DNA of 50,355 bases, counting the filler, from Streblomastix strix (taxonomy: Eukaryota), in the NCBI GenBank assembly GCA_008636045.1. It is 2 parts of 2 records of this genome, joined end to end, with 100 filler letters (N's around TTAATTAATTAA, not from the genome) between each part and the next. Parts side by side here need not be neighbours in the genome. Positions count along the whole stretch, not along the records: positions 1 to 25,138 come from SNRW01000209.1; positions 25,239 to 50,355 come from SNRW01000210.1. One strand, written 5' to 3'. Below, in pieces: positions 2,843 through 45,900 of the stretch. The notes below the pieces were generated by a model. The model ran no database searches. It saw only the letters and a program-made list of their open reading frames with translations, and had not been told where the DNA came from. A program made the position numbers and the translations under genes. Within the stretch, counting starts at the first letter, position 1. Each line of letters starts with the position of its first letter.

Positions 2843-3238
2843 AAAGAAAACTAAATAGAATAACTATAATCTTCTTGTTTTGATCCGGCCCTTTTAAGTT
2901 GGCTTTGTATTCCAATAAATGGAGGTTGCAAGATGATGATTGGTTCAGGAAAACCTCACTCAATTGGGTTTTTTTTCTAAATACTATATTTTGAAATTGC
3001 CCAAAAGCTTCTTCAAATGAGATAATCAAAACCTTATTTTGAAGTTTTCATTTATTTTGTGAATTTATAATTTTAATTAAAAAATACAGAATATTTTTAT
3101 AATTCATTAAATAAATATTAGATTCTATTTTACTTTAATGCGAACTTTAGGCTTAATTTATTAATTCAAACAAATTTAATTACATTAATAAAAGAAAATC
3201 AATGAAATGAGTTAAATTAATAATATAAAATCAAGAGA

Positions 3239-4719: not shown

Positions 4720-7554
4720 ATGTCCTCTTTACAGTCTTGGCGTGATCTTAACATCGATGAAGTGAATGAGAAAGTTAATTAGATTTGCCCTTTATAATCC
4801 GATCTTACAGATAGTGAAAAAATAATATTTTCTGTGTTGCGAGATGCAATCAAAGAGAAAGGGCTTCCAATTTAACTTAGAATAGCTGGAGGTTAGAATT
4901 GATATTATATTAATTGTGTTTTGATTTGCTTGTTTAATAAGGTTGGGTAAGGGATAAATTATTGAATATATAGAGCAAAGATCTTGATTTTACAACGGAC
5001 AAACTTACAGGGGTAGAATTTGCCAATATAATTCTAGATTTTTTGAAACGGAACAATAGATTGGATCTTGCAGGGCGAATATCTGTAATCAAAGCTAATC
5101 CCGAAAAATCAAAAGTTTTCATACTTCTATTATACAATATTACCTATACTTATATATAATACATTTAATAAGCACTTGGAGACTGCACATATGCGTTTAT
5201 GTGGAATTGATGTTGATTTTGTTGGATTGAGGAAAGAAACATACAAACAAGACAGTCGATGTCCAATAATTGTATACAAATTTTATTAATAATATTTTTT
5301 TTTAATTTTTTACTTATTAGGAAGTTGGTGAAGCAGCTGAAGATGCATTAAGAAGAGATTTGACAATAAATGCACTTTTTTATAATGTAACATAGAAGAT
5401 AGTTGAAGATTTGACAGGGAAGGTTTTTTAATTTGAAAATAATTTCATTTAATAATTTGTTATTTAATTTAATAAGGGATTGATTGATTTGAAAAATAGA
5501 GTAGCTCGAACTCCAATTGATCCTATTTAAACACTTACTGATGATCCTCTTCGAGCATTAAGGTTTTATTAATCATTCAAATATATTCTTTTATTTTATT
5601 TTATTTTAATTTGATATTATTTTTAGAGTTATTCGTTTTTCTTGCCGATTATCTTTAGCTATTGATCCATAACTTTCTGAAGGATTAAAAATAGATGAAA
5701 TACATGTATATTTATTTTTATTTTCAAATAATCTATTTTTATCTTAATTATTATCCTAATTATTATTAGAAACGAATTCTCACACTTATTTCAAGAGAAC
5801 GTATTGGTGAAGAAATGATAGGCATATTTCTCCGTAGTGGTGATGATATGCACAGAATGCATGCTGTTGACGGGCTCCGATTAATTGCAGCTCATAAACT
5901 AAATGATGTTATCTTTCCTCTTGGTTGTATGATTGAAATCACAATTAATGATTTTTAAACAACAATAAAATATTTTTTATTTATCTAATTTATAGAAGAA
6001 AAATGGAATGAATAAGAAATTTCTATTGGAATTTGCATTGCTGATGCAGTAATTAATATTCTTTATCCTTAAACAGCTTATATTAATAACGAATAAGTGA
6101 AAGAATAAGAGAAACATATGGATGATATAATAATCCACAAATCATCATAATTAGATTAATCTAATTCTCTCTTAAATTCATCACTTATTGAATTATTCAC
6201 TCCTGAGGCTAGCGAAGATTCTAAACCATCTCATTCTACATAGAAATCTTAATCTTAATCCTCTTCTTAACTACCTAACTCATCAGACAATGTTGAATGT
6301 TTTACTGGAACTATATATAACAGAAACAAATAGTTTCTTCTATGTTACTTACTCGCATCTGTTTTCTATCCCATAAGAAACCAGCAGATTGAAACAATAG
6401 TCAGCAAAAAAATAAAGACAATCCCCACATTTCATTTAATTCTTAAAGGATTTGCGGTTTGAATTTATAATATTATAAACAAAGATCCTTTATTTTATAT
6501 TTCAATTTTCAGTATAGCACGAATATTATTGAAAAAATAAGCCGAATTTTGGATAATTTTGAAGTGCTGAACAATCTATTTGGGCATGATATTGAAATAA
6601 TTTATAATAACTAGTAATATAGTGGAAATAGCAAAGAATTTAATAAAGAACCAGAGAAATATGAAGAAAAACAAAATTCCAACATATAAATAATTGACAA
6701 TTAAACAGATATTGATGAATTTAAGACAAATAAATTAGAATTAGGTTTTTTCATTATTATTATTTACAATATACTATATATCATTCATATTACAGCCAGA
6801 ATGATTGGATCATATGGAAAAGATTGGAAAGAAGCTGCTCTATTTTATGCGATTGTAATTAATGCTTAATATTAGCAAATGCATTAGACATCAATTTTTC
6901 ATCAATCTTCTTCTCGAAGCGTAACATAGACATCCTTTAATAAAACAGCTTTACTTATTTTTAATCATATACTATCCTTCGCAGAAAATGCTTAGATTTC
7001 AACATGCTATTCAATCAGTGCATTATTAAGCGTCTGTTTCAACTTTTTAATTATAATTGTTCTTTATACATTAATATTTTTTTAACAGGCTGATATAATC
7101 TAGAGGAAATTTTTAAATCCTGATTAAAAGCGATTTACAGGAGCTTTTTTACATGAATAATGGGAATATCTTGTTTTAAACAGAGAAGCTAAGGAAGAAG
7201 AAGTTGAAGTTTGTTTATTTTTAGTCTAATAATTTTAATATCTTATTATTTTCTTTAATATAAAATATATATTTGAAATTGTAGCAATTTTTAGCTAAGT
7301 CAACATAGGATATTATTGGAAAATATTTATTGGCGGAAGATAAAAAGAAGAATAAATGAGAAACAATAAATCCAATGGATGAAGAGAAATAATAATAATA
7401 AGATGATTCATAAGAAATATCAATTAAAAACAAGCGAAGGAGGGAATCAGAAGAGAATAATGATGAAAATGAAGATAGAAAATAAAGAAAGAGACGGAGA
7501 ATAGAAGACGATGATGAATAATAAAATATAAATCATCCATTTAACACCCAGTGA
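4720..7554 (+). CDS. CCA1: CCA tRNA nucleotidyltransferase (class II), multi-exon; ends at 7359 if the internal TGA is a true stop
   Basis: Motifs across GT-AG introns: LRIAGG/WVRDKLL..DLDF, KANPEKSK/HLETA, DVDFVGLRKETY..SRCP, EDALRRDLTINALFYN, EDLTGK/GLIDL..RTP, DDPLRALR/VIRF, SRERIGEEM. Confidence 0.92.
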
Positions 7555-7836
7555 AAAACATATAATCAATTAGTTGTCTTTTCTCAAATATTGATAATTA
7601 AACATCAAAATTTTGCATGAGCAGAAATTATAAAAAGACAAGATTCATGTGATAAAAATCCCTCCCAAAATATGAAAAATATATATAAATTTATTCGCTG
7701 CTTATCTATAGTGGATTAAATAATAAATTTATGTTCAATTTATCATATTAAAGCAAATAAAATTCAGTAATATGTTTAATGAATGATTAGATTTTTATTG
7801 TTTCATTAAGAAATGACTTTATAAGGATAAGCAGTC

Positions 7837-9704
7837 TCACTACTCACCACCTTCCTTGATAAGGTCATCTATTTTTAAAACCATTCGGACTACTTGAGTT
7901 GCAAGTTGAATCTATTACTTCTTTCCCAGAAGTGTTTCAAATACGCCAAGATCTTTCATATCGTTCTTACCTGTCTCAAGACAATCTATTCCAAGACGTG
8001 GATTCTTCTTCTTGCCTTGTTCTGCTTTAATACGGCCTACTTCGGCCATAGCATCAATTCCACTATTCTCTGCAAGTGCTATTGGAATAGCTTCAAGTGC
8101 ATCTGCAAATGCACGCATTGCATATTATTCACTACTACTAACAGTGTCAGCAACAGCTGCAATGTGTAATGAACAAGCTATTTCTGATGCACCTCCTCCA
8201 TAAACAATTCTATTATCTCTTATTAAGTTGCGCACAACACAAACAGCATCATGAATAGAACGTTTTGTTTCTTCAATAATCATCTTATTACCTCCTCTGA
8301 TGAATATAGTAACTGCTCTAGTCTATGGGCATCCTTCTATGCAGGTCATTTCTCCTTCACCACTTCCTCCACTTCCCAATCTCAATTCACGGACTATTCC
8401 TGCTGATCCCAATTTCTCTGGTGAAAGATCTTCAAATCTTGGGACAATCTTTGCTCCTGTGGCCATCGCTATTAATTCAATGTCTGGTCCACCAACCCAT
8501 CGAATCGCAGGAAGATCATTCTTCATTAGAAGATAATTGGCTTCATCATCAAATCCCCACTTCATTATATATATTATATTCATTGATAATAAATTAGTTT
8601 AATATAAATAAAATTACAATACCTGGCAGATGATGAGATTTGCACCACTCTTCTTACAGAGTCCAACCATATTTCTGTAATAAGCTTTTTCTTCCTCTTC
8701 TAATCGTTCAAATTTCTCTTTAGTATCAATTTATAACTGAAATTATTAAAATAGATTAATAATAATTAGTAACATAGTAAAATAAGAAGGTGGAAATAAA
8801 AAAATAATTATTTACCTCATATTTAGTCTTTGGTTTTGGACATTCAAAAGGGCAAGTAAGAATGGCTATCTTTGCATTCTCAATCTTCTTCTTCATTTAC
8901 ATGTGCGAGATTCCTTTGTCGATAATTAGACCGTGTACAAGTTCAGTATCTTCCAAACGACCTCCAGGCTGTATGATGTTAAAAAAAATTATTATAATAA
9001 AGCTTTCTGGTTTAAAATTGTATATTCTTATATATATATTTCTGTATTATAAAATTGAGGTATACCCTACTCTCTATTTTAATGTGATCAAAATGAACGT
9101 CTCTCCTTTCCCACTCACAGACAGAACACACAGCGTCAACTGCAATCTTCGCCATCTATTCACTCTAACGATTTATAATTTTAGAGCTTATGCATGATTT
9201 TGCAGGAATAAGAAGAGGTGCTGTGTTGTCCTTTGAGAAGTCAATAACTTCAGCAATATCATCAAGGCATTTGCAACATTCCTATGCACTGAGCTCGTAT
9301 CCCTCAGCAATACGAATTGGATGCACACCTTTATCGAGTAAGTGAAGTGCTTATTCTAAAAGAGCACATGCAAAAATTGCAACTCCAGTCGTACCGTCTC
9401 CTACCTCATCATCGTGCGCAATAGAAAGCTCAACAATTAATCGAGCAACTTCATTGCTAACATCAATTTGTTCGAGGATGGTGCGTCCGTCATTCGACAC
9501 TGTGACATCACCATCTTGCGAAACCAGCGCTTTATCCATGCCCCTAGGTCCATATGATGTACGTACAGAGCTTCCAAGCGCCATGGCAGCATAAATGTTA
9601 TTTTTCAGTGCCTCAATACCAGTTACACGCTAGCTGCTTTGTTCACGTAAAATTATGATTGGTTAGCCCATCTCATCTGTCGCGACTCCCACAGCTTGCA
9701 TCAT
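7837..9704 (-). CDS. CCT5: T-complex protein 1 subunit epsilon (chaperonin CCT), 3 introns
   Basis: Motifs: [125 protein letters not shown] at 7837-7839. Confidence 0.97.
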
Positions 9705-10275
9705 CTGTATTTTTTTGAATATATAATATCATATTTTACTAAAGATCCCAATAAACTTATTTCGTGGTATAAAAAATAATTACTAGCAGCAAAAAAATGT
9801 ATTTTAATGGAAATAAATTGTTCTGCTATTTTCTTGCCAGAAAATAAATTATATTTGCTAGCGTTAAGATAATTTGTAAAAAGGATATATGATTTAGATG
9901 AATCATTCAAATTATAACCTTATTGTTCCTTTAAGTTTGATAATTTTTAGAGCCTCTTTATTCAAATAATAAATGAATTTAAAAAACTCTAAGATTTAAT
10001 AATTAAATAAATAAAATTCAAAATAAAAATTTTGAAAGAAGAAATATAGGAATGCAAGTTAATAACATTCAAGGGGGGGGAATATTACGTTGCACTTAGG
10101 TTTTCTAGACACAGGATAGGAATTGTATATTATATTATATTTAAATATTATACATTTAATATAATGCCTAATGGTGTATTTTTATAATTAAATTTAATAA
10201 TCAAACGAAAAAATATTAAATATGTTGTTGATAATATTTATTAAATAACAGTTAGAAGCGAAGTTGCGAATTAAT

Positions 10276-12041
10276 TCACAAAAGTTATAATTTCTTTATC
10301 AACTTAAATTGATCAGGTACTTCCATTAATGCGTGTAAGGCAAAGTTTGGTGCAAAATTCTCTGAATATCTTTTGCGAATTGCAAAAAATTCTAGGAACT
10401 AGAACTGCAGGAGGAAATATATTTGAAATATTATTCGAAAAATTAGAATATTATTAATATTATTTTAATAAAAAAGTTTTTAACATACATTATCAAACAA
10501 TCTATTTTTGATCTTATCATCAAATTTCTTCATTTCATCCCAAGGTCCATCTCTTCAATAAAACAATCATAAAATTATGAATAGAATAAGATCAAATTGT
10601 CATACCCAACTCCAATACACACTATGCTAATAGGATAATGGGATGCCTCCTAAATCGCTTAAATTGTCGCTAATTCGCTCGTAACTTGCCCGTCTGTGAT
10701 TATGATCAGAATATGGTACTTTAAAAAATAATATATAAATATTTAAATTTATCAAAGTTTATAAAGCATCAGAAAGAAATATGCCCTTATTCTCTCTAGT
10801 CAGGTGTGAATTAAGTAATTTTATAATTGTATATATTACATAGTATGAAATTGAAATCAATTATTAAATGGTTATAATTGAATAATTATAAAATTATCAA
10901 AATTATTATAATATATTTTGAGTCTAAAATATGATAAATTAATTTTAATTTCTTAAATATCATTCAATTATATCCATTATATTATTGGTTTCAATTTCAT
11001 ATTATATAATATATATATTTATAAAATGAATCAAATCACATTTGACTAGAGAAGATAAGGACACATTTCTTCCAGAAGATAATATTATATATTGGTAAAT
11101 ATTTACATACTGAACGCTCTTTCTTAACAATCTCAATAGCTTGTTTTATAATTGGCTATGAATTAGGTAGTTCAATAGATGAAAATATAAATAAATATGA
11201 CAGATAGTAAATTGATTAAAACTAATATAAATTGACAAACAGCGAAGTTTGTAGGACCTGATAACTTAATGTCTGGTGTGATTTGCTTATATCTTTGAAG
11301 AACCTCCTAGAAATATATAAATAAATGAAAAAGTAATAATGCCCGTTAATATTGAATTTAAATAAATTTTGTTTTATCGTACCTGAAAACCAACTTTCAT
11401 TATTGTTTATTTATAAATAAAAATAGATAAATAAGTTATAGAAGAATAATAATAGAAAATAATTATATACCTGGATTTCGGTCTGGAAAGAAAGGGAACA
11501 CAGATTTATCACTGAAAATTAATATTTTATTAAATAATTAAGAATTTTTTGATATAATAAATTCATACGTTGTATAGCAGTCACCAAATCCGAAAGTTGG
11601 GATCTAATAGGATGATTATTTAAAATTAATTTGAATATATAAATAAATTTAACTAAATATAATAAAGAAGACAAACAATATTATCATCATCAAAAGGCTC
11701 AAGAGTCTCTCCAATAATTTAAATCACTTCCATATAAGGATTGGATAAACTACAATCGTGAAGAGATCTATTGCTGAAAGTTCTTTCACCCTGGATTTAT
11801 AATTATCAAATAATTGAAGAAATAGATATGTTTTGATTCTCATGAGGTATAAAGATTGCTCATTATTATTAATATTATTATTATATATTAATTTACATAC
11901 AGTATAAAGATTGCTCTTTGTATAATCTATAGCAAGTATTAAATTGGAGCTTTCTAACCCGTTTTGTCGAAGAGCAATTTGCACCTCTTCTAATGTCCTG
12001 AACCTGTCGGGAATATTGCTAGTAGGTAAGCAGTTTCCCAT
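10276..12041 (-). CDS. Copine/RGLG-type vWA domain protein with N-terminal acylation motif; many short exons
   Basis: Motifs: GLESSNLILAIDYTKSN, SLH..NPYMEVI..IGETLEPFDDDN, IPTFGFGD, LSGPTNFA/PIIKQAIEIV, YHILIIITDGQVT, EASHYPISIVCIGVG/DGPWDEMKKFDD, FALHALMEVPDQFK. Begins MGNC. TGA at 10276-10278. Confidence 0.9.
10775..11070 (-). repeat. Imperfect 27-bp inverted repeat inside the 392-nt copine intron (10719-11110)
   Basis: Arms are 10775-10801 (agaaatatgcccttattctctctagtc) and 11044-11070 (gactagagaagataaggacacatttct). Confidence 0.85.
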
Positions 12042-12585
12042 GTTTCTTTGTTAATTTCAGTAAGAAAATCAAAAACATAGATAGAGCAATGAATTACATC
12101 AAATTCATATGTAAATAAAGTTTTCTAAATATTTCATAATATTTTATAGGATTTAATGATTTGGAGTAACATAAAATATAAATTTTGTGGTATTATATGC
12201 CAAATTATTTTTATAAAATTTAAAATTATATATATATCAAAAATTGATAAAGTGGGTGTTGAAATAATCGAGAAAAATTATTTTATTTTGAAATTTAATA
12301 TTTGATTGATTATAATGAAATTTTGATTAAAAGCATATATATAACGATCAAATTCATAATTAATATAGAATTTTAATTCAAAGAACGGATTAAACAAAAA
12401 TTTGAAAAACAAACTCAACAAATAATTCAACAAACTAATATATAATTGATATTTTATTTCATTTGAAAAAAATTTAATGTTATTAAATTAAAATTTAAAT
12501 TATTTATACACTGAAGTAATACTATTCAACATTACTATAATTTACAATATAAAATAAAATAATATGTAATGTAAAAAAATGAATA

Positions 12586-26625: not shown

Positions 26626-27406
26626 TCATTAATTTAATGGTTGACCTTCAGCGTCAGGAGTTCTTCTTACAAAACGCAAATAGTCGGTTTCGAAATTAGA
26701 ATGTAAAATCAAATCATCTGACATTGGGAGTGCATCAAGCTGGAGTGTGAGTGATAGAAGCGCCGGTTCTTATGCCCAATTTATCCCACTTTCCATTATT
26801 GATTTCTGAAATATGAACAATACACAAATTATAATGAATGAAAAAATCTGTAAGATTATTTCAAACCATAAATACTTTTCGGAGAATGCAATTCTATTTG
26901 TGTAAAGTAGTATATTCATCTCTAAGACGTTTATCCTCTGCATTTATGGTATTTTATTTTAAATTCTATCTTTATTCTTTCAAATCCTCGACTTACGCAA
27001 ATAATTCCATATTGGCAATTCTGCGTTCTATTTTACCCAAAATCAATATAAGAATAATAAACATTATTTAAACATACATCGTATTTACATCTTAATTCGT
27101 TCTAGCTGATCCTTTCTGTCATTCACCTATCTGCTCAATTCGCTAAGTTGTGTGAGTAACATTCGCTTTTATTTAGTTTACTCAACTAATATTTAATAAT
27201 TTTCATTTTCGGTTCCTAATTCTTCTATAACTTTATCCACTGCATCTGTGCGAAAGGCACTAATTCAATAGGATTATAGAAAAAAGTAAATTTTGTTCAA
27301 AATGTTCAACATACGTCCTCATGGCAAGGAATAATATAGACAGAGCAGATTCACTATCAAATAATTTCTACGGTCCAGATTGTAAGTTTCCATCACCTTC
27401 TGCCAT
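26626..27406 (-). CDS. CENPH: Centromere protein H (CENP-H/Mcm16/Fta3)-like, 3 introns
   Basis: Coiled-coil protein ending 'SIMESGINWAQEPALLSLTLQLD', matching the CENP-H C-terminal signature (S-G/K-V-N-W-A-E-D-P-x-L). ATG at 27406, TGA at 26626-26628. Confidence 0.72.
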
Positions 27407-27922
27407 CTAAATCATAAAAAATAATATAATAAATCTATGAGTTAATAGTTAGGGAGTTGAATATAAAAGTATGTGAGCGTTTATGAGGTTGTATGCTTCA
27501 TTTTATTCGATAATAAAATAAAAAAAATCTGAATAAATAGACTAATAAACGTTTTATGCGTTTATCTTTGTTAAAAATAATAAATTAGTATTTTTTAGAC
27601 AAAAACTATAATAATTGATTATAAAAGACAAAAATAATACTATTTATTAAATTTAAAATATAGCTAGACAATAAAATTGACATATTTTTTATTAATTAAC
27701 GCGAAATCGTATTATCTTATGATTTTGGCACATAAACAATAATTGATTTAATGGCTGATTTTGTTGTGTAAAATATAAAAATACATACATAAAATTCGAC
27801 TAAAAGTACAAAATATCCATATAGGACTTAAAATAAACAACTTTAAAATAGTTTTATGTTTTAGTTTATTGTACATTTATATTCACAAAATTATTATTCA
27901 ATTATTTCAATAATTTCATTTT

Positions 27923-30900
27923 TCAATTCTTTTTCCCATAAATTGTAGGTTTTGCAGATGTAGGCAGTATCTAGGATTCCATTTTGATTATATCTGCTGA
28001 AGCACGAAGTGATGATTAAATAAGCGAGAGTTGTTTTGCAAAGTTTAATGCACTGATCCAACTCTCTAACTCATCCTTAGATAGAGCAGCAAATTTATCC
28101 TATTTGTTATCACATTTAGTCTATTGATTTGGCATACTTTGTTATTTTATGAAAAATGGGTAAATGAAAGGATTCTCAAAATCTCCTTATTCATTTAAAT
28201 TATATTCTGATTGGTTTTCTTGAGATATTTATGGAGATTTTTTCCCCATTTCCAATTTTTATCCTTACTTCTTATCGATTTAGCTCTCATTTACATGAAT
28301 ATGGAAATAAAATGCTTCTTGATCTTATGTATAATATCCTGTTTTATGAAAATTTTCTGGGTCTTTCAGAGGTTCAATAATTACTTTTCTTTCACCTTAT
28401 TAGCATTTATCATTATCATATTCTTTGTTTCCAATCATTATTGAATATATTGGCTTCTTTTGTTTTTATATACAAGAATATGGAGTTTCATAAAGGATAA
28501 ATTATTCTGTAAATAAAACTGCCCAAACAATCTTTTTCTTTTCCATCCATTTCAAAAATCCTGTTTTAATCGCATTTTCAACTGACATAAGAAACTTTTT
28601 AGCTTTTCTTCTTAAAGTAATAAATTTCAATATGTCACCTTAATTAGTATTGAAATTTTAGTAGAATTCAGGAGAGGCAATTTTTTCTAATTTGTCAAAC
28701 AATGTTTATCTGTAATCCTTTGAATCGGTATCATCTTTCATTATAGCTACATTATCAATAGCTCTAGACGTTATTGCTTTCTATTAACTTCCAATATCAT
28801 TTTTATTGTTTCTGTGTTAAATATTTATGTTACATGCAGTTGTTACATACGATATATTGATTCCAACATTTTAATTCTACTCTAATTAAATGGTTTAAGG
28901 TAAAAGTATATCAGTATTTTAATTTACTAGTTAGTTTGCCACTGCTGGGGAACCATTTATTATTTATTAAATTGGAGTTTATGAGTTTAATATTTAGCGT
29001 TATATATTTTATTAATAAAATGAATTATTTTGTATTTGTGGGGGATCAATTAATGTCTATGGACTAATTATTTGATTTATATCAGGTTCATTCTCTATTG
29101 TGTTTTTGTTCGGTTTTTATTACTTAATTTAAATATAAGGTAAAATCCAATGTAATTAAGCCTCTTTAAGTACATTTATATATCCAAATCCCGAATTTCC
29201 TAATTATGCAAACGAAAATGGAAAATTAAATTTACTTTGGATTAATTATTATTATGTTTGAAATTATTTGCGTTAATTTTAATATTATTGATTAATATTT
29301 TTCTGATTTTTATTTCCTTAAATGCTGATTTTCTATTCAATTCTTTTTTTAGAGACATTGTTATTGTTAATAAATGAGAAATCAGGAACATTGCCGACAT
29401 TCTAATAAAGTAATTAACTGCCAAATGTTCTTTATTAAGCAAATTATATTTTCCTTTGGATTTAAGGAAGAGATGAAGATGCCAATAGTAATGATTACAA
29501 ATTATTCATTTTATTTTATTCATCTAATTTAATATTTGAAATATTTTATTATTCAATATTATCAAATTTTTATTCTTAAATAGTATTATTCGTTTATTAT
29601 TCAATTATGGTTAAATTTCCTTTATTAATGATATTACGCAATGGAATAGATCTAATTTGTTTTTATATCTCAAATTAATAATTTGTATTTTATTAATCTC
29701 CTTCAAGATTAATATCCTGACTATTGAGGAACTGTTTGAATTATTCACAATATTTAAGAGCTCTTGCATCTTCTCTATCATTTTATATTTTTTATTCTCT
29801 CCTAATTCGCATTGTTGATATTAGTAATGATAAGAATACAGAACTTGAGGGATATTATCTGACATTAGACAACCAAGGTATATATCTTATTCCACATCCT
29901 ATCTTCATTAAATTCCACATCATCTGTTCTCTATTTTATTTCATCTCTTTTCTTCTTCTCTTTTGTATTTATTTATTATCTAGTTTTTCATATTATTATT
30001 ATGAGTTATTACTAAAGCTGTTTCTATTGATTTATAGTGAATATTTAATTTATTAGTTCAATTATTAATTCGTAGGCGTAGATGAAAGAGATGGTTATGC
30101 AGGAGTAGATGATGTTTCAGGAAATATTTCATTGTTATTTAAATTTTAATTCATATTTGTTTATCCAATTTCTTCATCTTCAAAGGAAGAGGATTATTCT
30201 TCTACCAGACTATTTAATTGGTTTTCTTATTCTTCTTATTAAAAATTTTATATCCATTTATTAAAATTTTAGAGGAAGTAATCATATTCTAAATGTCTTT
30301 TATATTTAATTTTATTATTATTATAATCTTCTTATTTTAAAAATGGTAATAATGTCATTATGAATATAAAACTTTTCATATCTCCTTATATCATTATCTT
30401 TTATATTACATTTAAGTTATTATTATCTTTTATCAATATATTGGCTCCTGATAGAATTAAGTTTGCAATTGGTTTGTTTGGAAGAGCCAATGAAAATGAA
30501 GAAGAATTTGGAGAGAATGAATCTAATTATTGAGATACAAATGATTCATTTTTTATTTATTCTGCATCCATTAGGGCTACAAATTATTATGAAAATGATT
30601 CAGCTGTTAATATTGCTTGAGGAGATAATTTGTAATAAATAACCTTTTTATAATCTTTTGAAGATTATTCGATTTTTTTATTTTATATATTATTCATATT
30701 TCTTATATTTTTGCTCTTATACTCTTAATTTTAATTAGTTTCTTTTTTATTATTTTCATCGGTATATATTTATTATTAAGATGTTTATAACATAGATGAT
30801 TATTATATTGGCATAATTATTTTATTTGTGTCATCTTTCTAATGTATCAGATATTTTATTCCTGATGGTAGAAATTAAGGTGATTCAATCTTAGAATTCA

Positions 30901-33900
30901 TATCCATATTCATACTCTCATTTACTTATTTACTTATAATTAAATTCTTTATGTTATCAAAACTGTTATTTAATACATTATTATTATTCTAATTTATGTT
31001 AAACTAAGGAGTAGATGGAGTAACAACTTATTAATTTAAATACGATGTAAAAGGAGATCTTATTGGAGAAGAGAAAGAAGAAGGTGAAGTTGAGAGATGT
31101 TATTATGAAGATGAGAATAAAGGAAGAATAACAGTTGATTGTGGTTATTGGTATGGTTATTGTATGTATGGTGATGAATGAATTGTATGCATATGAGATT
31201 ACATGGATGAAGGAGAAGAAGATTCAGGAAATAATCTTTTTCTTGGAGATTAATTACTCAGATCTTCTATATGAGGTAGTGATCTATTTAACATATTATT
31301 TTATAGTAGTTACTCTTATTATTGGTGCTTTTTCTTATGGTTCACAATATATTCCATTCTTTTTACTTATCTATCATCTTTTATTTTCTTTTTTTCAATC
31401 TTCTTTTGTTTCTTTCTTTCTTTTTCTTATTATCTTATTTTCTATCTCTCTTTTTCTTGTGTCAATTAATCTTCCAATTTTTTCACTTTATTTCCTATTT
31501 ATTCTTCTTAATACTCTTTTTAATTCATATTTTAGTTAATATTGACTTGTTTTTCTTTCTCCACACATTCTTTTATTTATTATTATTCTTTGTATTTCAT
31601 TTCTTGCAATTTTGTTTAATATTTAACAATAAGTCCTCTTAATAATTCTATTACTTAATTTGGTATTATTTAAATCTTATTCATTCCAGAAGAATGAATA
31701 TAATGTAATGCTGTTTTTCCATAATTATCCGTAGTATCAATTTATTTGCTGTTCAGAAAAGGTAATAATTATAATATTATTTTAGAGTGCTATTATTTAG
31801 ATGCCAATAATAAAGATGTAGCTTTTTATTGCCAATAAATATCTATCCCTTTAATATATTAGTTTAATCCAGCGAAATTTTCAACTGGTATAATCTATTT
31901 TTAATTAACATATGATATATATAAAGGAGGATAAATAGATTAATATTATTATAGTATTTATTATTGTTGTTGTTATGCATATAATTAAGAAGTATATAAA
32001 ATGTTGTTATATAATAAAGGTGATTAAATTAATTGAGGAACTGAAAGACCAGATCTGGAATTAATTTTCTTTTGTTCTTATTGTTTCTAATTCTTTAATT
32101 ATTAAATATTTTTTTCATTCATTTATTAATATAGGACAGAATTATCATCATTTTTGAAGAATGTATAATTAACTTGTTAAGAATGTAAAGGAGAATGTGA
32201 TATAGTAACAATTGGTCCTTTTTCATTGCTTTATTAATAACCAAGTTAAACTTAAGGAGAAAGGATAGTTAAAACATTTTATTTTGTATTTTTAACAGTT
32301 TTGGTATCATTAATATTTTAATGGTTATCAATAAGTTAATTTGAAGGTTAAGAATATACAGATTAAGAAGAATGAGAAGATTTTCTACTAAAATTATCCT
32401 TATTAACTTTATTCATATTTTAATTTCTGTTTTATTAGTTATAATAATCATATTTAATTTATGATAATGCAATTCCAGATGCGGAAGATTAAGATGATAT
32501 AGCATCTAGAAATGCATTAAGTGATTCTGAACACCCTGATAAGCAAATCAAATGAAATAATGAATAACCATTGAATAGTAAAATTGGCTGTTATTTATAT
32601 TCTGATTATTGATTCTATGGTATAAGTTATTATTATTATTTTGTTCTTTCTCTCAATTTCCTTTCTATATCTCTTCTATAATTACTATTTGAATTGTATG
32701 AAATTATTGGACTTTATTATTATAATTATTACTGATTTTATTATTAATTTAATTACTTTATTTATGATTAGATTAAAGGAGATAATATATTAGATGGAAA
32801 ATGAGATGTATTAAAAGAAAGATCTTTACTATTTGCTCTTACTCTTAATTTATCAAGTTCTCCTGTATAATTCATTATTTAATCATTAATGTTTCTTTGT
32901 TTAACTTATTATTAATATTTATTAATGTATAACAATTATGACTATAATGATGAAGAAGGATTTTAATATGAATAATTATTATCATCATATTTACCTTTAT
33001 CAAAACTACCTCTTCCTCTTCCTTATTCATTTGAATCTTCCATTCTTTTATTTATTTGTATATCTGTGCTTCTTCTCTATCTATCTCTATTTTATGATGA
33101 TTCATCCCCTATCTATTTTCTTACTTGTTAATCATTCTTATTTTATTATTATTTATGTTTGCATTATTTCTCCTATTAAAAAGAAGATGATATAAGTTGT
33201 GTTGTAAATAATTAAGGGGAATGAGTTGGAGACTGTTGCACATTGAGCCCCCAACTTCCAGATCTGTTTCTTTATATTGAAGATTGATTGCCTTCTTTTA
33301 TTCCTTTGTTATTAGTCTTATAATTTAATTTAACTGGCTATTCATTCTATTTCAACTTAAGTTCCATACTTAACTATCTTTTCTTTTATTTAATTGAATC
33401 TTTTATATCTTTTTTCATTCTTTTCATGTCTTATTTTACTTATTCTTCCACTTTTTCAAATTGATTTCTTAAACTCATTTTATTATTAATATTGAAGTAT
33501 TAATGAAATGATTATTTAAATGGATATTGATTTTATTATTTAATTTATATTTATTCTTCTCTATTTTATTTTTTTTATTATTAATTTTCATAAATATTTC
33601 TATTTATTCTTTCTGTTCCATTCTCTAATAAAATATTAGTATGCTCAGATGAAGAATATTCAATATTTTATTCATTTTCTCTTAATTTTTTCTTTTTAAT
33701 TTTCTTAGTTTCTTTTTTTCTCTATTGAGAAATATATCCTTCTTTATTCATAACCAATTCTCTTTATTAAAATTAGTTTTATTATTATTTATTAAAATAA
33801 AATAAATTTCCTCCAAATAGTGAATTTTCTTCACTATCACTCTTATAATCATTATAATATTAATTATCTTCACTTTATTCTTATTCTTAAACATATTTTA

Positions 33901-36900
33901 ATTCTTCATTATCAATTGTATCCTCACATTCATTTATTTCATTTTCAACCATCTTTTTTACTTTCATATTAATTTCTTTCTTCTTCTTTATTTTGTTTCT
34001 TTATTATTATTATAACTATTATAAATATGATTATGTTGATGAATGTGAAGGAGATGAAGATGATGAAGGTTATGATGTGTGAATATGAATATTTGTATGA
34101 GACTATGTTGAAGAGGATTATTATGATTCATTCGTTTTGCTACTTTTGACTGTTTCACTAAATTTTCTTTCTTTGCTTACATTTGTAATACTTCTTTATC
34201 TTTAAATAAATTATTGCCTATTTAATTATTGTGTTTTGCTTTTAGTTTAATTTTTGAAATTATTCTGTTAAATTCTTTCTTCATCCTAATCTTATTCACT
34301 ATCGTCTTCATCATCACTATGCAAATATCTATTTATCATCTATTTCTACATTCCATTTCTTCTTTCTCTTTCTCTCATATATTACATTCTCTCTTTTTCT
34401 TTCTATCTCTGGAATTATTATTAGTATTATTATTTCTATTATTTCAGTTTAATAAGTTATAAATATGAATTCTTTTAAAATAATGGAGATGATACATTAT
34501 ATGATTATGAGCCAGAGAATAATAATGATCGAAGAAATGTCTGTCCTGTTGAATATGATGAAGATATTGATGATGGAGAGTAAATTGTAATTATTATTTT
34601 AGATTAATTATAATTGTTTTATTCATTGTTATTTGTATTTGTAATATTTTACAATTATTCGCCTTGTTTTAAATCCAAATTATTGCTCTAATTATGTTAT
34701 TATAAAAAAACTGATTTTTATTCACTATTTTTTGATTAAAAAGATGTTTCTCTCGATCTCATTTCATTTTCTGGATTGAAAATACTTTTATCTTCATAAT
34801 CTCTGTTAGAATCTTTATTTCTATTTATTTCTTTTTCTCTTTATTCTTCTTCACCCTCTTCTTATCTTATTATTCTATCCGTTTCTATTTACTCCCTTTA
34901 TTTATTCCCTGTTGCTAAAGAAGAAAAAAATGTTCTTAGAAAAGTGCCAGAATCTAATGAAGCACAAATTAAAGCTTATATTTTAATTAAATTGAATGAG
35001 CATTGATCGCAAGGCTAATTGTGAATTATTTGTGTTTCTTACTATAATTATTTATTCTTTGAATTGGAATGTTAAGAATGATTAAATTATAGGTTATTAT
35101 CAACATTATTATCATTAAAACCTTTAGAATTTTATATTTTTTCTTGTCCTTTTATATTTTCATGTTACAAAAATGAAGATGAAGAAGAATTTGAGTCATT
35201 GGAAGATTATGAAAGTGAAGATTAACTTCTTATGAATTATTTATTATTACTATTTCCTTACTTAGTATTATTTTAATCTTTATTCTAATTTTTTTATTCC
35301 ATTTTGATACTTACATCTTTATCATCATCATATTCTTATTCTTCATCATTAATTTATTCTTATTTTTCTTTATTCTTATTTTTCTCAATAATAATTTATT
35401 CAACAAATAAACATGGTGTATGAATCATTATATAAAATATCAATCGAGAATAAGTCATCATTTATTAGCCTTTATCTTCATATATCTATTATTTGATATT
35501 TTAATTCATAGTCATATTCATTTGCCTATTGTTATTTTAATTAATATTAATAACATCTTCAAATCTTTCTCTATTTTAAAATATATTCTATTATTACCCA
35601 CTAAATATTTAATTTTATTCATTAATCAATTAGTCCTTATTATTTTATTATTCAAATTAACTCATTTGAGAAGTTGACTATGAAACTGATTATGATTATG
35701 TATATGGAGAATGAGAATAAGGAGAAGAAAAGGAATATGTTGGACTTGGATATTAGGATTATTATTAGGATTATTATTAGGATTATTATTAGGATTACGA
35801 TTAAGATTATGATTAAGATTAATAATATTGCATTTATTATTCATTTTAGGAAGAAAATAAGGATATTGGATATGGCTGAGACTATTAATTAATTGATTAA
35901 GAAAATATTTATTTATTAGTGAGAGAATCAGGTTATTTTGAATATAATTTTTAGTCAATTTTTCTAAATGGAGATCCTATTTCGGTTTATTAATATATTT
36001 GTTGTTATTATTAATATTAGTATTCTCTTTTCTTTATTCAATTTTATTTGCTAATCAATCTTCTTTTCCGATTCTCTTATCTAGAATCTTAATATCTTTA
36101 CTCTTATTTATTAATAAATTTTCTCCATCCCTATTCAATAGTTTAATTACTATTGCGAAAACAAAATGGTATATATGAAGCACAACTATAATATATCTAC
36201 TTCTATTAAGACTATTAAATATATTATTATTAAGAATTATTATAGGATGTTACAGAAGGAGATTGGAGTTAGATTGAAGGAGAATTAGTAGATAATATTA
36301 TTTATCTTTCTGTATAAGGTGTTTTCACTTATTATTATTATTCTTATTATTATTTAATATTAATTGTCTAAGAAGAATTTTATAATTAATAAAATAAAGG
36401 ATTACTTATTTAATAATCAAATGAATTTATGAAATTATTTTCCAATTTCATCATCTTTCTATTCGTTTATTTACATATTTCTTAAAATAAATCTTATTGT
36501 TGTATTATTTTTAGTTCATAATTTTTTTATTATTATTATTATTATTACTCATAATTATCATCTGTATCTGCTTCATTGTTATTATCATGATACTTATTAC
36601 CACTTTCAGATCTAAAAGAAGAAAATGGAGTAAAATATTAAGATTACGAAGATGAGGAAGAAGATTAAGATGAAAATGATGATAATGACTGTAAAGACGA
36701 TTTCAAATATGAAGTTTAATTAGAAATAATTGTACCATTTTTTTAAATATGAAATTTTTTTAAAGGACTATTTAATGGTGATACAAATGAAGAAGGAGAA
36801 GAAGATGAAGATTAATTTTGCTTATTTTGTTTATGAGAAGAATGATGATTGTGATTAGTATGAGAATGTGAGTTAGAATTGGATAAAGAAAATGATTATG

Positions 36901-39900
36901 ATTCACATTCAGATTATGAAGAAGAATTAGAAGAAGAATAGGAAGATTTATAAGTTGATGATGATGAAGAATAAGATGAAGACGAAGAAGATGAAGATAT
37001 ATATGTTGAAGAATATATAGGAGAACTGGATAAAGATGATGTACTTAATTCAGAATCAATCTATGATTCCTATTCATCATCTAAATAAGCGTCTCTTTTA
37101 TCTGTAATTATAAACTCATTGTCATTTCTTTCTTTCTTATTCTTCATATTCCTATTCTTATTCTATTTAATTATATCTTTCTTCTTTTTTTTAATTTCTT
37201 TCTCTTCAATTTATTATTCTAAATTTAATATAGATTTTCTTTCAATGATTTATTATGGTTGAGAAGTAAATAGCTAACATGGTCCTCCGTAAGCAAGTAA
37301 AATGAATAAAGAAGCAAAATTCTATGTCCTTATTGAAGATAATATTGGCGTTTCACCTGAACAGAAAGGAGATCCAAGAGGAGGAAGAGATTAATTAAAA
37401 ACATCTTAAATTGAAGTATTACATTAATGCTTGGGAAATGGATGCATTGAGATATTAGAATAAGATTAAGGTGATTAATATGAAGATTATTATGAGTTAG
37501 AATATGAAGAGATCTGTTAATTGGTATTATTATTGTTCCTATATTAAAATTAATATAAATAATAATAATGTCGATGAAAAGAATAAGATTAGAAGAAGGG
37601 AGGTGTAAATGAATAGTTAGGAGGATGAATTATAGATTATGATGAATTAAATGAATAATCTCTTTCTTACATCTCTCTAATCATCTTCTTTCTTTCTATT
37701 CTCCATTAATATCTTCTTTTCTTCTTCATTTCCTTTATTTGGTTCCTTTCTCTGACTCTTTCAATTTATATTTCATACTCTTCTTATTCATTTGAAATTA
37801 AATCTAAATAATTATTATATAATTATCGTGTTATTATAGAGTCGGTTTCATTATGCAATAATTAATGAGTAAATAATAAGGAAGACTTTCTACACAATGA
37901 ATTTGGCAATATATATTATAATGATTAAAATTATTAGAGAGAAGTATTATAAGGTTATTATTAATATTAAGATAATGAATCTGGAGATTAAATGGGTTGT
38001 TATTGAATTGAATTTGCAAATGAAGGAATGGAAGTTTAAAGAGAAGAAAATAACGGAGATTAAGATGAGGCTTGCATTTGTGGATTTGAAATTTTAAAGC
38101 TTTAAATTGATGTTTATACAAAATTTTACTTATTTTCTTATTAAAGTTAATCATTTACTTTATCAATTTTTATGTCCTTTTTATGTAATATACTAAAATT
38201 TCTTCCTCCTTTCTTTTTTTCAATTTCTTATTATTGTTTCTTTTATTACATTGACAATTATAATTATTATTTATTCCAATTTTCTAATTTAATTTTTCTT
38301 TCTTTCTTTATTTAAAATGCATAATATGATAAAGATTGTATAATATAGGTAATAACTTAAGAAGATATTAACAATGGAGAAGATAATAAATAAGAAATTG
38401 TGTCTACACTACCACGTTCGGTTAATAAATGTAAGCAATTTCTATTACCTAAATAGAATACCAATCTATTAAGAGGATGTGTCTCTATTTATTAATATTA
38501 TTATTACAAATGATTAGGATATTAAAGAATAAATTATTAAGGAACGTAGAATCTTGATTATTATTTGATTGGTGATTAATACATTTATTATTATTTAAAT
38601 GGAACAATAGAAGTTTAAGGTGATCGATTAATAATTGGAGAGTTAAATCCTATATAATTCTGCTGTTGGTATGATTAATTTAATTAATGTTGTTATTTTT
38701 AGTTTAAATTATAACTTTGACTTTACTGCAATGATAAAGATTAAGATAACTGCTCAGATGTAATAATAGGTGCCTGATGAGTAAATAGTTTTAATTATTG
38801 ATTCATTTATTCATTATTATTATTTATTTATTGTTATTATTATTACTATGATGATGATGATGATGATGAAGAAGAAGAAGAATAGGAATATGAAGAAGAT
38901 ATATTTGTTTAATTTAACTATGCTTTTTATTATATTTATTACTATTATTATGGATTATTAGAAGGAATGGTTGCTAAAATTGTTGGAAACAAAAATGGTT
39001 GTTATAATTAAGATTACTATTAAAATTAATATTAATTAGATAAATTATTATTTTTATTGTTAGATGCTTATAAATTTGATTGTGAGAAAGATTGAGATTG
39101 TATTTAATCTTATTTACTCTTTCCACCTGTTTTGATTTACTAAATAACTACTTTTGTTTATGATGAAGATTATAAAACTGATTATTTAATATTTTATTAT
39201 TAATTTAGTGGAATTTTGGAGGATGCATCTGAGAATATAACGTTCTAAAACTATTAGTTTTGTATTTTATTAATATTTGGATTTCCAACATTGTTACTTA
39301 ATGTTTACATTTATTATAATATTAAATTCTAATTTTTTATATCGCTTTAGTTTTAATTATTAATAGTTTATGATGATAATATACTTGCATTCATGTTAAT
39401 ATTTTCTTTTTCTGTTTCATGCACTTCTTTAGTTTCAAACTATCTTAAATTTTCTTCTTCCTTTTTCTATTTAGTTAATAAACTTTATAATGCTTATAAA
39501 TCTCTGTCAAATTAATTATAATTCATTAAAGCATTATCATATTATAATAGTAATAATAAAGGTTATAATCTGAGCTATGTGCAAGAATGGTGATAAGGAT
39601 TCATTTTTATTCTATCTTCCTATTTTGTATTTGCACCTCTCTACAATAATAAATTCATTAATTATATATCTCCTTAAGCAGCTGCAATATGAAGTAATGA
39701 ATAACCAAAAACACTGTCTTATTCATTTATATTAATACCAAATGCAATATACCAACCTATTTTATGTAATCTATATTAATGTTGCTTTGATTAATATTAA
39801 TGTTATTATGGATCAGGTAAAGATTAATATTTTTATTATGAATTTAATGTTGAAGAATACGAAGAGAATAAAGGAGATTATATATGAGAGTGAGCTAATG

Positions 39901-42900
39901 GAAAGAAGAAATGTTATTTAGTAGCAGAATGAGCATAATTATCATCATACTATTACTAATTAATATATTACAACCTATTCTTTTACAATTCTTCCTGATC
40001 TTCAAGAGATCCTGGGCATAAGAAACAAAACAAAGGGAAATATATTTTATTAAATTATTGAAATTTTTATTATATTTAATATCCTTATATATGCTGATTT
40101 GTTGAATGATTCTTCAATGTTCGATTTATTTTAAATTCTACGAAATTATTCATATTTTCAATTTATTTATTTTCTTTCTCTTAAATATTCTCATTCTTAT
40201 GTTAATTTTATTTCTTATTATCCTGATTTATATTTTCATTTTAATTTTCATTTTACCGATTTTATTTTTCATTATAAATTCTATTATTAACAATGGGAGA
40301 TTAAATTGCACTTCGAATTATGTTTTATTAATTATTTTATTAACTATTTTAATTGTTTTATTATTATTGTTATTTTTTAATTTATTATTATTAATAACTA
40401 ATATTATTTATTTATGGCGGTTGCAATATTTCAAATACTCTTGCAGTGCATACACATGAATCAATACATCCCTAACATTCATATGAATAGTAATCCTAAT
40501 TGTAATTATAACTGAAGTTGTCTTTGTGATTAATATAAGAAGTTTGTAAACATGAATATGGAGAATATGGTGTAAAAGGATTATAGTATTAATTGTATTC
40601 GTTAATTTCATCGTCATCTTCATTTTAATCTTAAAAAATATTAATATTAATATGATTATTGTTATTGTTACTGTTTTATTTTATTTTATTTAATCCTCCT
40701 TTTCTTTCTATTTTCATCTTCTTTATATAAATTCTCTCATTTCTTTATCCTTCAATTGAGACATTGTTATTTATCCATCCATTAATCGCTTTCTCTCTTT
40801 TCTTTTTCCAATATTCTTTTATTATTTATTATTTAAGTTAATCTTTTATAATTGATGTTTAATTTCTATTATTATTATTTGATTGTTTACTACTATTTCT
40901 TTATTGTTTATTGTTATTATTGATATTAGTTGGACTTTATACATCTACTCTTCCTTTTCCTTATTCATATTAATCTTCATTATTAATACATTTATCATTC
41001 TACTCTTTTTATTTACTTCTTTCTCTATCAGATTCATAATCCATATATTCATCTTCTTCATATTCATCTTAACCTTCTTCATCATACATACATGTAATCA
41101 ATGCTGGAGTTCTTCCCCAACAATCTCTTTAATTAATTGCAAGAAGTTATTATTAGTTTACAAGTCTCATATTATTATTAAATTCATTTAATATGATGTT
41201 AATATCTGATTAGTGTTAATGCAATTACAAAAATTAATCCTATGAAAATGACTATTAATTTTATTATGTTTGAATTTGAATATTATTCCTTATTAATGAA
41301 GGCGATATTGGATATTGGAATGAAGAAGATTATAATTATTAAGGTTCCTATTAATATTATTTTATTTATGATGGTAATTATTAATGCAAGAATGATGATG
41401 AAGTCTATTGTGATGTAAGATCTGGAGTTCTTTCTATCTTCATTCCTTTATTCATGCTTGTAATATCTTCATTAATCTTTTCTTCTTTACTATTTTATTA
41501 ATATTTAGTCTAATTGTTATTCATTTATTCATCATGTGTTAATTATGATATTTATAAATTATTATTTAACAACTATTTATGTTTTAATGGTGATGGTTAC
41601 GATTAAGAATTAGGGTTTAAGCTATTTGCTAATGATTCAAATTATAACTATTTATAGTTTTCAATATTCTTTTCTTCCAAATTTCTTACAATACCTTAAT
41701 TGTTATTTTGAACATACTTTTCTCTTGTTTATTCATCTTATCTCCTATTTCTCACATATTTCTCGTTTCTGCTTTTTTTCAATCTATTTCGTCTTCTCTA
41801 TTCATCTCCATTTATTATTTTCCAAATGTATTCATTATTTCTAATTGTAATTCTTGATAATATTTATAATGCATTTTAATTTATATACAATTATGGATAT
41901 GTAGAAGAATATTCCGAAGTAGATATGTAAGATGGAGGAGATACAAAACTCCTTTCATTATTGATAGTTTATAATTTCTTTAATGACTCGCTTTTTTTCA
42001 TTGTAGGTTTGTTTAATTCATTATCTTATTTGGATTATTGAGCTTTTTGTTAAATTTTATTATTATTAAAATTTAAATTCTGTAAGTATTATTATCCTTA
42101 ATATTTACCAATTAATTTTTCATTAAATTCAAATAAATAATATAAATTTTAATTTGGCTCATAAAGAAATTACTATTACCATTATTATTAAATATAATTT
42201 TTATTTACGAATTATTGTTCATATTTATTTTGTATTATTTCTCTTTCCTCTAAAGTTAAATTCTATATATGTGATGCTAATAATGAATAATATTATTATT
42301 ACTGATATTATTGTTAAAACTAATATGAAACTTAAGAATGAGGATTGTTATGTTATTTAGTTACAGAATTATGAGAAGGGTTAGTTTGATAATTAGAAGA
42401 ATTGTTTTCATATGATTATTAAGATGATGATAATGAAGAAAATTATGTTTGTGAAGTTTGCTCAGATTATTAATCTGTTAACTAATTGTGAAATTAAGAT
42501 TAAGATAAATGTTAAGATGGAGATTATGATGAAATGTTATCAGGTTTTATTTTCACACTTGATAATTATTTATTTTTATTGATAATACTTATAAAATTAT
42601 TATCGTTTTTAATATTCTATTTATCTTTATTTTTGATGTTGATTTCTATTTTGTTCTCTTTTTCAACATAATCTTCCATTTAAATTTATAATTCTTCTAA
42701 TTATTCAAAAGATGAAGAATTACTAGAAAAATTAGAAAAATATTTAGATGATTAATCAGAACTACTATCTTCTTAATTTTTTTATTCTTTTTCATAAATT
42801 TAATCAAAATGTTCATTACTTTACTCCTTTCTTTTTTATCTTGTGATTTTATTCAATCGTTTTAAGTTATTAATTTTTTATTCTCCGTTTGTTTCATGTT

Positions 42901-45900
42901 CATTATCTTCTTCTTCTTCTTCCTCATCATAATAACATTACCATTTAATTGACTGTAATAATGTTAATGGGTGAATATGAGGAGATAAATGTAATGTATT
43001 CATATTAAATATAGAAAATGGAGATTATATTCTATTTTAAATGAATTGCGATATATTAAATCAATGATCTAAGGGAATTGAGCAGGATGAAGAAAAATTA
43101 GAAAGAAATGAAAATGAAGATAATTATTGTTTTGTAATATTCACTTTAACATATTCATCAATATTCTCTCTTTATATCTCTTTATTACATAATTATATTT
43201 ATTAATCAATATTTTCCTATAATAATTATATTTTTGTTAATACTAATTATTTAGATTAAATTTTATCTTTATCTTCTTTAGTTAATTGTTATTCTTCTTA
43301 TTGCTATTCGTAAATTTAATTATTTTCCTCTTCCAGTTTAATTTCACTCACATTTACTGATTTATTATTTCCTAAATTAGTTTTCTATATTAATTTACTA
43401 CAATGAAATTCGCCCTGTAATATTTAATGTGGATTAATAAAACAATTGTGTAAATTTAGTAAAAATCTAACAATCTAATCGTTAGCCTCCTATTTCCCAC
43501 CTCTTTTACCTGAAAATAAAGCAATAGACAATAATGATTCTCCATTATAATTAGAATAAAACCAGGGTTAATAATTGTTTGATTGATCAATTGTATTAAT
43601 ATATGAATAAGAAGATGATGATGAAGAGTGAGATAATATTGGTGAAGGAGAAGGAGAATGTGAAAATGAATTATCTTATTATTATTATTAGTTTATATTT
43701 CTTTCTTTTTTTCTTAATTGATTTATATATTATTTGTATTTTTATCTATTCTTTTATTAATACATTTTCTCTTTATTATATCTCTTTTCTCCTACTTTTA
43801 TCATAAAAATCATTTATTTAATTAGCCTACATCCAATGGTCATCTAAATATTTTATTCCTCTTATTCATTTTTTTATTGATTGTTTTATTCATTTTGTTC
43901 CTTATTTGTATTAATAGAAGAATTATTTGTTGTATTTTTATATTTATCTATAACTTTACTCTTTATATTACAACTATTTTCTTTTTCTTCTTCAATTAAT
44001 TCATTATTATTAAAACAATAATCTAAATATTATATTTTAGCTTTTTTATAGATACTCAAAGGAAGTGATGAATGAATTGATGATTATGAGAATGGAGGAA
44101 ATGCTTATGGAAATGCAGTTTAAATATTATTGAAATGAAATATGGAGTTGATATTTTATTAAGTTATATCATTACGTAATTGCCGTTATGAATATAAGTG
44201 TTTTTAGTTATGAATAATCCTTCTAATATTTATTATTTTAGATGAATAAGGAAATGAAATATATAATTAAATAGACTTTTTCTTTTTCTTATTTAAACTT
44301 GTTAATTTTTCGTTATCTTTTAAATTACTTTTATTATTTTCTTTCATATTTATTGTTTTCCTAATAAAATACTCTTCATTTGTCCATTGCACATATATAT
44401 TCATATGATCTCATCTTTCCATCAGTTATTATTTAATATTATATTCACAATCATATAATGTATCGTCATCAAATAAATTTAAAGGAAAGTAATTAAACAA
44501 TAAATTAGTTTCAAAAATCCCTCTTATTAATTAATGTAATACTGTATCTCCTGAAAATAAACACGGAGATTAATAAAATAAAAATGGAGAAAATGAATTG
44601 ATTGATGAATTAACTGATGTGAATTAATTAAATTAATTATGTTTGATAGCAAGTTTCTAATTAGTAACATTAAATTATTTTATGCTTCCTTATAATTAAT
44701 TTTCAGTTTTGTTTTAATGATTTATTTCTTATATTCCTAATTTCTCGTTCCACAATTTAACTCCTTCAATAAATCCAGATCGCGAAGCATAATGAATGGG
44801 CAGCATCCCATTTAGATCATATACAGAAATTAATTATATTCCAATTTATTATTATTCTGATTATTCGACATAATCTAAAGTAATTTAATCTTCATGAGAT
44901 AAATGCAATTTTTATTAAGTATATAATTAAGCATATTTAATTAATATTTTACAAATTCTTATATTTCCCGAATAAAAAGCCATATGAATTGGAGTTGTGA
45001 AAGGGACTGCTACTAATTGATGTTTGAAAACTTTAATAGTATCATTTGAATGTTATGATGTGGATTAACTAATGATTTTGTTGCTTTCTTTAATTGGCAA
45101 TAATTTTTAAATTAATTCTATTTCTTATTTAATTTACTCTTAGCCATTTAATCTTTCAGTAATCGTATATGAAGGATAATGAAATCTTGGCCAAAATACA
45201 ACTTTTTAATCTTTTCGCGTTTGAACACTCGTTAACTCATTTGTTGAATTTATGCAATTTTCTTGTAATTTATTTTCCTAAATCTATTCAATATTCTATG
45301 AAATCAACTTTTCGCCGTTATTTTTATTTTGTTTTATTTACAAACTAATCCATTTACAAAAATAAAATAGTAAAGAATTAGGAGGTTATTAATTGAATCC
45401 TAATGAATGAATGCAATTTTAAATATCTTATATTGAATGACGTGGACAGAAGATTGAAGGAATTATATTATTAAAACTTGGAATTTAATATATTTGATTT
45501 ATTGGTTAAGGTTATTATGGTTTATAATCTATTAATCCAGGAAGAGTTACAGGAGTAATATATGAGAAAATACTGAATATCTTTGAATTTTATAGAACTA
45601 GATCATTTTATTTATATTTGTATTATTTACCTGATTTTTAATAATCAATTAATTATTAATGAATTTTCTTCTTATTCTTAATATATATCGGTTTATTATC
45701 TTCACTAATTTCAATATTAATTAATGTTCCAGGAAATTTCTCTTATTAAGAACAAAGAAATCCTCCAAATATATCAGCTCCAAACTACAATAATAATTGT
45801 GTAGTTTATTCCCATCCACGAATTATTGATAAAAGAAGAGCTGGATACGAAATAAGAGGTTAATTAGTTTCTGTCAATGGAATTGAAGTTGTAATAGAAC

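Follow-up and report, generated by a model that had tools for sequence, protein, structure and literature searches.

In-frame UGA codons inside four genes of the oxymonad Streblomastix strix: a candidate genetic code without a dedicated stop codon

The window analyzed here is a 50,355-nucleotide stretch of DNA from the termite-gut protist Streblomastix strix, composed of two parts, which are separated by an N gap near 25140-25238, with a right-hand part of 25,117 bases. By our own count it contains 11 host genes, 10 of them complete, and in-frame TGA codons were found at nine sites in four of the 11 genes, three of which carry two or three each. The presence of these TGAs is solid, and the positions and strands given for them in the original prediction, which had proposed from the sequence that UGA serves both as stop and as sense codon, were confirmed at all nine sites. 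The TGAs are rare, and past them the frames run on for thousands of codons without a shift and with a coding-like character. What we infer beyond the DNA level is that UGA serves as a sense codon, rare and disfavoured, which a near-cognate tRNA decodes, and that it terminates translation only near transcript ends; this interpretation is unproven, and we regard it as an even bet.

The longest of the four genes is an intronless ankyrin-repeat gene of 6,225 codons (27923..46600, minus strand), with TGAs at 44411..44413 (codon 730, LMER*DHMN, the asterisk marking the TGA), 43061..43063 (codon 1180, PLDH*FNIS) and 36038..36040 (codon 3521, SKQN*IKKR). Its frame, 46600-27926, holds these three TGAs against 95.3 expected (P 3e-37), whereas the other two frames hold 92 and 232. 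Of the segments that the TGAs delimit, 1, 3 and, below threshold, 4 gave Pfam ankyrin matches. The repeats are spaced by long inserts rich in Gln, Asn and Ser, and the gene lacks introns at this length whereas the conserved genes of the genome carry many short ones; no ortholog of it was found among the matches listed. The second long gene, a low-complexity gene labelled Snf7-like (12586..21252, minus strand), is likewise intronless, with 2,888 codons, a terminal TGA and three internal ones at 17998..18000 (codon 1085, TEPT*DRSN), 15907..15909 (NSNS*EGSE) and 15106..15108 (SPQS*RRKE); its frame, 21252-12589, contains 3 TGAs where 48.9 are expected (P 8e-18). TGA makes up 0.066% of the codons in these two frames, and no frameshift was seen across their 9,113 codons.

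The two remaining genes are shorter. On the plus strand, the last exon of CCA1 contains a TGA at 7357..7359 (KKNK*ETIN), past which 64 codons of an acidic/basic tail lead to a TGA at 7552-7554. The multi-exon gene labelled SHIPPO-like (25240..26276, minus strand), truncated by the assembly gap, contains TGAs at 26076..26078 (YRQY*GLIG) and 25853..25855 (KNLT*SIKD), and the splice phases of its exons are compatible through both. The site at 26076 is the weakest of the nine because an alternative frame of its exon is free of TGA, though that frame scores -3.7 versus +2.3. A codon-frame score whose training set was limited to segments free of TGA or upstream of one gave all seven segments past the TGAs, including the CCA1 tail, in-frame values of 0.18-0.27 per codon and negative values off frame. 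The TGA depletion, coding score, ankyrin matches and splice phases therefore indicate that the segments of each set formed a single gene, although this origin alone is not proof that the gene still works as one. The NCBI models located for the TGA-bearing genes cover only pieces of 228, 134 and 70 aa, and EZS28_001858 spans only the part of the SHIPPO-like gene downstream of both TGAs. By exact look-up, none of five window translations was found as a read-through product among deposited proteins.

These TGAs are set within a code in which TAA and TAG are read as Gln, as previously published for S. strix (PMC13002328) and as the original prediction had it. The PABP gene of the window encodes a product identical at 100% to a deposited 610-aa protein, with 30 TAA and 12 TAG codons as Gln; its next-best matches are from Monocercomonoides and Blattamonas. 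Gln stands at TAA/TAG in the translation of CCT5 as well, and the NCBI models on the right-hand part (EZS28_001858 and EZS28_001864) use the same code. A terminal TGA was located in nine genes and read in the asparaginase gene, so that all 10 complete host genes end in TGA, as had been claimed. The base following the codon does not separate internal from terminal TGAs (G5 A2 T2 versus G2 A4 T3), again in agreement with the prediction; G follows five of the nine internal TGAs (P 0.009), a post hoc result that is weak when compared with Arg codons (64/255). No tRNA genes were found in the window.

A check of the TGAs in DNA reads had been called for, and in contigs of the public DNA run X1 the codon was unchanged at all five sites tested (25853, 26076, 36038, 43061 and 44411). 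This test covered the sites of the right-hand part, and it used contigs, which drop rare alleles. Apart from 25853 (97), every site had 200 or more contig bases to either side, and depth was 45.9 over 44411 and 43061 and 101.8 over 36038, with a full range of 5.8-102. Both SHIPPO-like TGAs are retained in the contig on window 25756-27619, although it departs from the window at 8 of 1,864 bases. Divergence between copies is uneven: along the ankyrin gene, X1 shows only 0-3 differences per 3-6 kb. None of the seven long X1 records is gapped; the matches of runs X2 and X3 to the window were all short or of low complexity.

As a mechanism for the ambiguous UGA, we propose that the codon would be read as an amino acid inside coding sequence and as a stop only near the transcript end: at a distance from the poly(A) tail, a near-cognate tRNA would outcompete an eRF1 that is weakened and recognises UGA only. 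Such readthrough would be inefficient, so that selection would bar UGA from conserved and well-expressed genes and drift would carry it into low-complexity regions. The inserted residue may, by precedent, be Trp, delivered by tRNA-Trp with the CCA anticodon. Insertion of Arg via first-position wobble of tRNA-Arg UCG is an alternative. Internal readthrough with termination near the transcript end has been proposed for Condylostoma and Parduczia (PMC4967479).

Several observations weigh against this reading. In a tally made by eye, the conserved genes of the window have 0 TGA and 16 TGG, and the weakly constrained parts 9 TGA and 30 TGG (Fisher P 0.046); the absence of TGA from all 16 conserved-gene Trp sites has P 0.05, and its absence from ~3,300 conserved codons (a length estimate), where ~2 would be expected at the window rate, has P 0.10-0.19. 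TGA is therefore not a free synonym of TGG, and its absence from conserved genes suits a costly, leaky codon, of the sort seen in Blastocrithidia, and tolerated nonsense equally. No ortholog crosses any TGA among the matches listed: the SHIPPO-like exon search returned one match among 57 candidates, the window's own model; the N-terminal 1,199 aa of the ankyrin protein gave 493 matches, none crossing a TGA among the 150 listed; and its C-terminus gave one match among 1,708 candidates, its own protein. In karyorelict ciliates, UGA occupies conserved Pfam/BUSCO columns as Trp, unlike here, where no such site was found and the flanks favour Arg. The 3' untranslated regions (3' UTRs) of the relative M. 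exilis are long, with a mean of 312 nt (PMC8767320), and gaps after terminal stops in the window measure 282-570 nt, an upper bound only for the 3' UTR. Streblomastix also has UPF1 (PMC1501061).

The original prediction considered that the contexts fit Trp or Arg; of the two, the flanks favour Arg. Arg ranked top whether the span compared was 3, 5, 7 or 10 residues (log-ratios +3.1 to +7.2), with Gly next, whereas Trp ranged from -3.3 to +0.4; Gln, Ser and Leu were negative and Cys low. In 1,500 nine-site draws, Arg was ranked top 942 times when the true residue was Arg, 333 times for Gly, 289 for Trp, 83 for Gln, 58 for Cys, 52 for Leu and 16 for Ser; these rank counts were used in place of a Gaussian 'posterior' for Trp (~0), which is distrusted with only 29 Trp sites. 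The composition suggests that many of the sites are former Arg codons (CGA or AGA), with Gly and Trp fitting less well but possible, and it bears on the former codon and not on the residue inserted now. An Arg-first, Trp-low pattern is also what decay of CGA to TGA yields, a further point against sense use, and window CpG observed/expected is 0.58; a CGA>TGA change would produce Arg-like flanks under the sense-codon and nonsense readings alike. An origin from Gln through TAA>TGA is disfavoured by the flanks. Selenocysteine (Sec) recoding found no support, with no Rfam match at the gathering score, which a divergent Sec insertion sequence (SECIS) would escape, and with the low Cys value; oxymonads do possess Sec synthesis.

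The rival that survives best, possible though doubtful, takes the TGAs as real stops, created by nonsense mutation (in most cases C>T or G>A) and fixed where a drift-prone symbiont can spare a gene or a gene tail. CCA1 would shed only its tail, and the other three genes would be truncated or recently dead. A control for such decay is present in the window at 1..2944 (minus strand), a decayed reverse-transcriptase (RT) retrotransposon (RVT_1, E 1.5e-14), presumably DIRS/TATE-like, with gag-like and RT/RNase H frames. It has lost a catalytic Asp of the YxDD motif (YIYD aligned to YVDD), and queries with it against viral and prokaryote contigs gave no match. It contains six in-frame TGAs and one frameshift in 1,002 codons, a TGA rate of 0.6%; the 575 codons of the pol frame carry three TGAs and are unshifted, and the upstream frame accounts for the other three TGAs and the frameshift. 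Dead DNA here therefore gains TGAs faster than frameshifts, so that the argument of the original prediction from genes continuing in the same frame is weak evidence against decay, although the observation itself, no shift and a sustained coding score, stands. Applied to the host frames past the first TGAs (21.9 kb), the retrotransposon rate predicts 0.4-3.9 frameshifts, and the chance of zero in dead host genes is 0.09-0.61 over six calibrations that rest on one event. If 0.05-0.1 indels per substitution are assumed, nine lesions that are all TGAs would have P 9e-4 to 2e-5, which tells against the nonsense explanation; the control inside the window is preferable as a guide, and it argues for a lower ratio.

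The nonsense explanation also accommodates the Arg-like flanks, the CpG depletion and the lack of TGA at conserved positions, and the two TGAs in ~270 codons (an estimate) of the SHIPPO-like gene are similar to the rate of the dead element. Nor are non-synonymous X1 variants depleted: past its first TGA the ankyrin gene has two synonymous and three non-synonymous variants (one at a noisy site), and the SHIPPO-like gene has two changed codons, both non-synonymous, one of them past the first TGA. These variants are too few to reveal constraint, and there is no sign of it. What the explanation has to bear is that three of 11 neighbouring genes died independently and recently, each gaining several TGAs while keeping its frame and splice sites, and that the first ankyrin TGA would cut 88% of the protein. 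The ambiguous UGA is favoured over it because of this parsimony, an argument that also rests on the lineage already reading TAR as Gln.

A second rival, which we consider improbable, leaves the code unchanged and has the TGAs corrected in RNA, through alternative or non-canonical splicing or through editing, with U-to-C changes producing CGA or A-to-I changes producing UGG. The Arg-like flanks would suit U-to-C editing; we know of no editing of this kind in metamonad nuclei. For introns, GT-AG stretches of 3n length and 39-120 nt were enumerated around each TGA. No such stretch exists that would remove 7357 or 43061, and candidates were found at the other seven sites, those at 26076 and 25853 sharing a real splice site or overlapping a real intron. 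Candidates of this kind also occur at 74% of 1,000 random codons, and the best ones are poor in T, with fractions of 0.22-0.36 (random-codon median 0.30) versus 0.40-0.56 in four delimited introns. Removal of the TGAs by 3n introns, which the original prediction had named as an outcome that would overturn it, thus has no stretch to work on at two sites and only T-poor candidates at seven, and it is unlikely, though alternative splicing is possible at 26076.

Errors of whole-genome amplification or assembly are improbable as the source of the TGAs: the S. strix draft was made from amplified DNA of picked cells, and the X1 contigs, covering five of nine sites, are not independent because X1 may be the window's own source, but the five TGAs are unchanged in contigs that differ from the window elsewhere, and since 2.8% of point changes create TGA, six TGAs would imply an error of ~0.8%, compared with 12 differences over ~20 kb in the long X1 pieces. 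The ambiguous UGA of the original prediction is the best single reading, with artefact and introns unlikely; against it, the frameshift argument has lost most of its weight, no TGA was found in a conserved column, and Trp is not the former residue that fits best.

The 11 host genes are asparaginase, CCA1, CCT5, copine-like, the long Snf7-like gene, DPCD, ZC3H15-like, SHIPPO-like, a coiled-coil gene, the ankyrin gene and PABP. Pfam backs six of these labels (ankyrin, PABP, CCT, CCA1 as PolyA_pol, DPCD and asparaginase). Those that had been proposed earlier fared unevenly: ankyrin, PABP, CCT and CCA1 stood, a C-terminal PH domain in the ankyrin gene has a weak E of 0.13, and the Snf7-like and SHIPPO-like genes have no Pfam match at E<=1. 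We presume the copine, ZC3H15, Snf7 and SHIPPO labels, the last after a motif that we take to be characteristic. In metagenome contigs, CCT5 was found at 80 loci with identity <=68%, and none was a close relative. The asparaginase-like gene (3239-4595, minus strand) opens with hydrophobic residues that look like a signal peptide (MLLAILLLFACA), and its top solved-structure matches include entries for guinea-pig-type L-asparaginase and 60 kDa lysophospholipase; two apparent TGAs in this gene are not exonic in-frame codons, one being out of frame and the other intronic. By eye, several introns of CCA1 (4890-7284) and the copine-like gene (10290-12040) seem to end in AAG, not YAG. A second, partial S. 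strix PABP-like model (P0004, EZS28_044380) shares long identical stretches with the window PABP and differs in the middle, and may be a second allele, a paralog or another lineage in the assembly. The window end (~50030-50355) appears by eye to hold a long inverted repeat (arms around 50035-50150 and 50250-50355), which could be a small mobile element or a fold-back produced by amplification.

Among known codes, the closest likeness is to that of karyorelicts and Parduczia (NCBI table 27; Swart et al. 2016, PMC4967479), in which UAA/UAG are Gln, as in S. strix, and UGA is Trp or stop (Seah et al. 2022, 10.1101/2022.04.12.488043). UGA is both internal and terminal in both, here at nine sites in four of 11 genes known from DNA alone, and it is among the rarest codons: in karyorelict conserved domains the three canonical stops account for 0.08-2.9% of all codons (10.1101/2022.04.12.488043), and the value here is near the lowest of these. 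In karyorelicts, 10.5-76.9% of transcripts contain in-frame UGA (10.1101/2022.04.12.488043) and 3' UTRs have medians of 31-43 nt; S. strix, in contrast, belongs to a metamonad lineage. It is not filed as a member of this code because conserved placement appears unmatched, despite the matching rarity and gene share. The Condylostoma magnum code (table 28) also has UAR as Gln, low sense use of UGA and few UGG to UGA changes, but all three codons terminate there, whereas every complete gene here uses TGA. The nonstop code of Blastocrithidia (PMC12153298) likewise belongs to an AT-rich insect-gut protist in which highly expressed genes avoid the reassigned codons; it differs in reading UAR as Glu, in using UAA as stop and in a UGA share of 0.72-0.85% of codons, and its UGA decoding needs a tRNA-Trp with a 4-bp stem and eRF1 Ser74Gly (PMC12153298). 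The published S. strix code (PMC13002328, PMC1501061) shares TAR as Gln, and the accessible text of these sources gives no sense meaning for UGA.

Overall, the proposal that S. strix lacks a dedicated stop codon and translates UGA within genes, possibly as Arg or a mixture, in what would be the first ambiguous code of Metamonada, caught early, with UGA rare and outside conserved sites, is put forward at a little under even confidence. Ambiguous stop/sense codes so far come, in the accessible literature, from ciliates, Blastocrithidia and Amoebophrya. At the level of titles and abstract starts, no report of UGA as sense in oxymonads was found, as the original prediction had supposed, and the S. 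strix genome paper, the 2003 code paper and supplements may bear on the claim; the available text of a 2026 oxymonad transcriptome paper (PMC13002328), which inferred codes from tubulins only, does not mention TGA or UGA. UGA as arginine or as a mixture was not found reported for any nuclear code. If the nonsense explanation is true, about one third of local genes carry nonsense mutations in a living eukaryote, which would be notable genome decay. If the ambiguous UGA is true, the public S. strix proteome is systematically broken up at TGA, and the organism would test the need for short 3' UTRs, given the mean of 312 nt in M. exilis. S. strix would then join the few eukaryotes without a dedicated stop codon as a new lineage, the trait having arisen independently in an amitochondriate metamonad that already read TAR as Gln.

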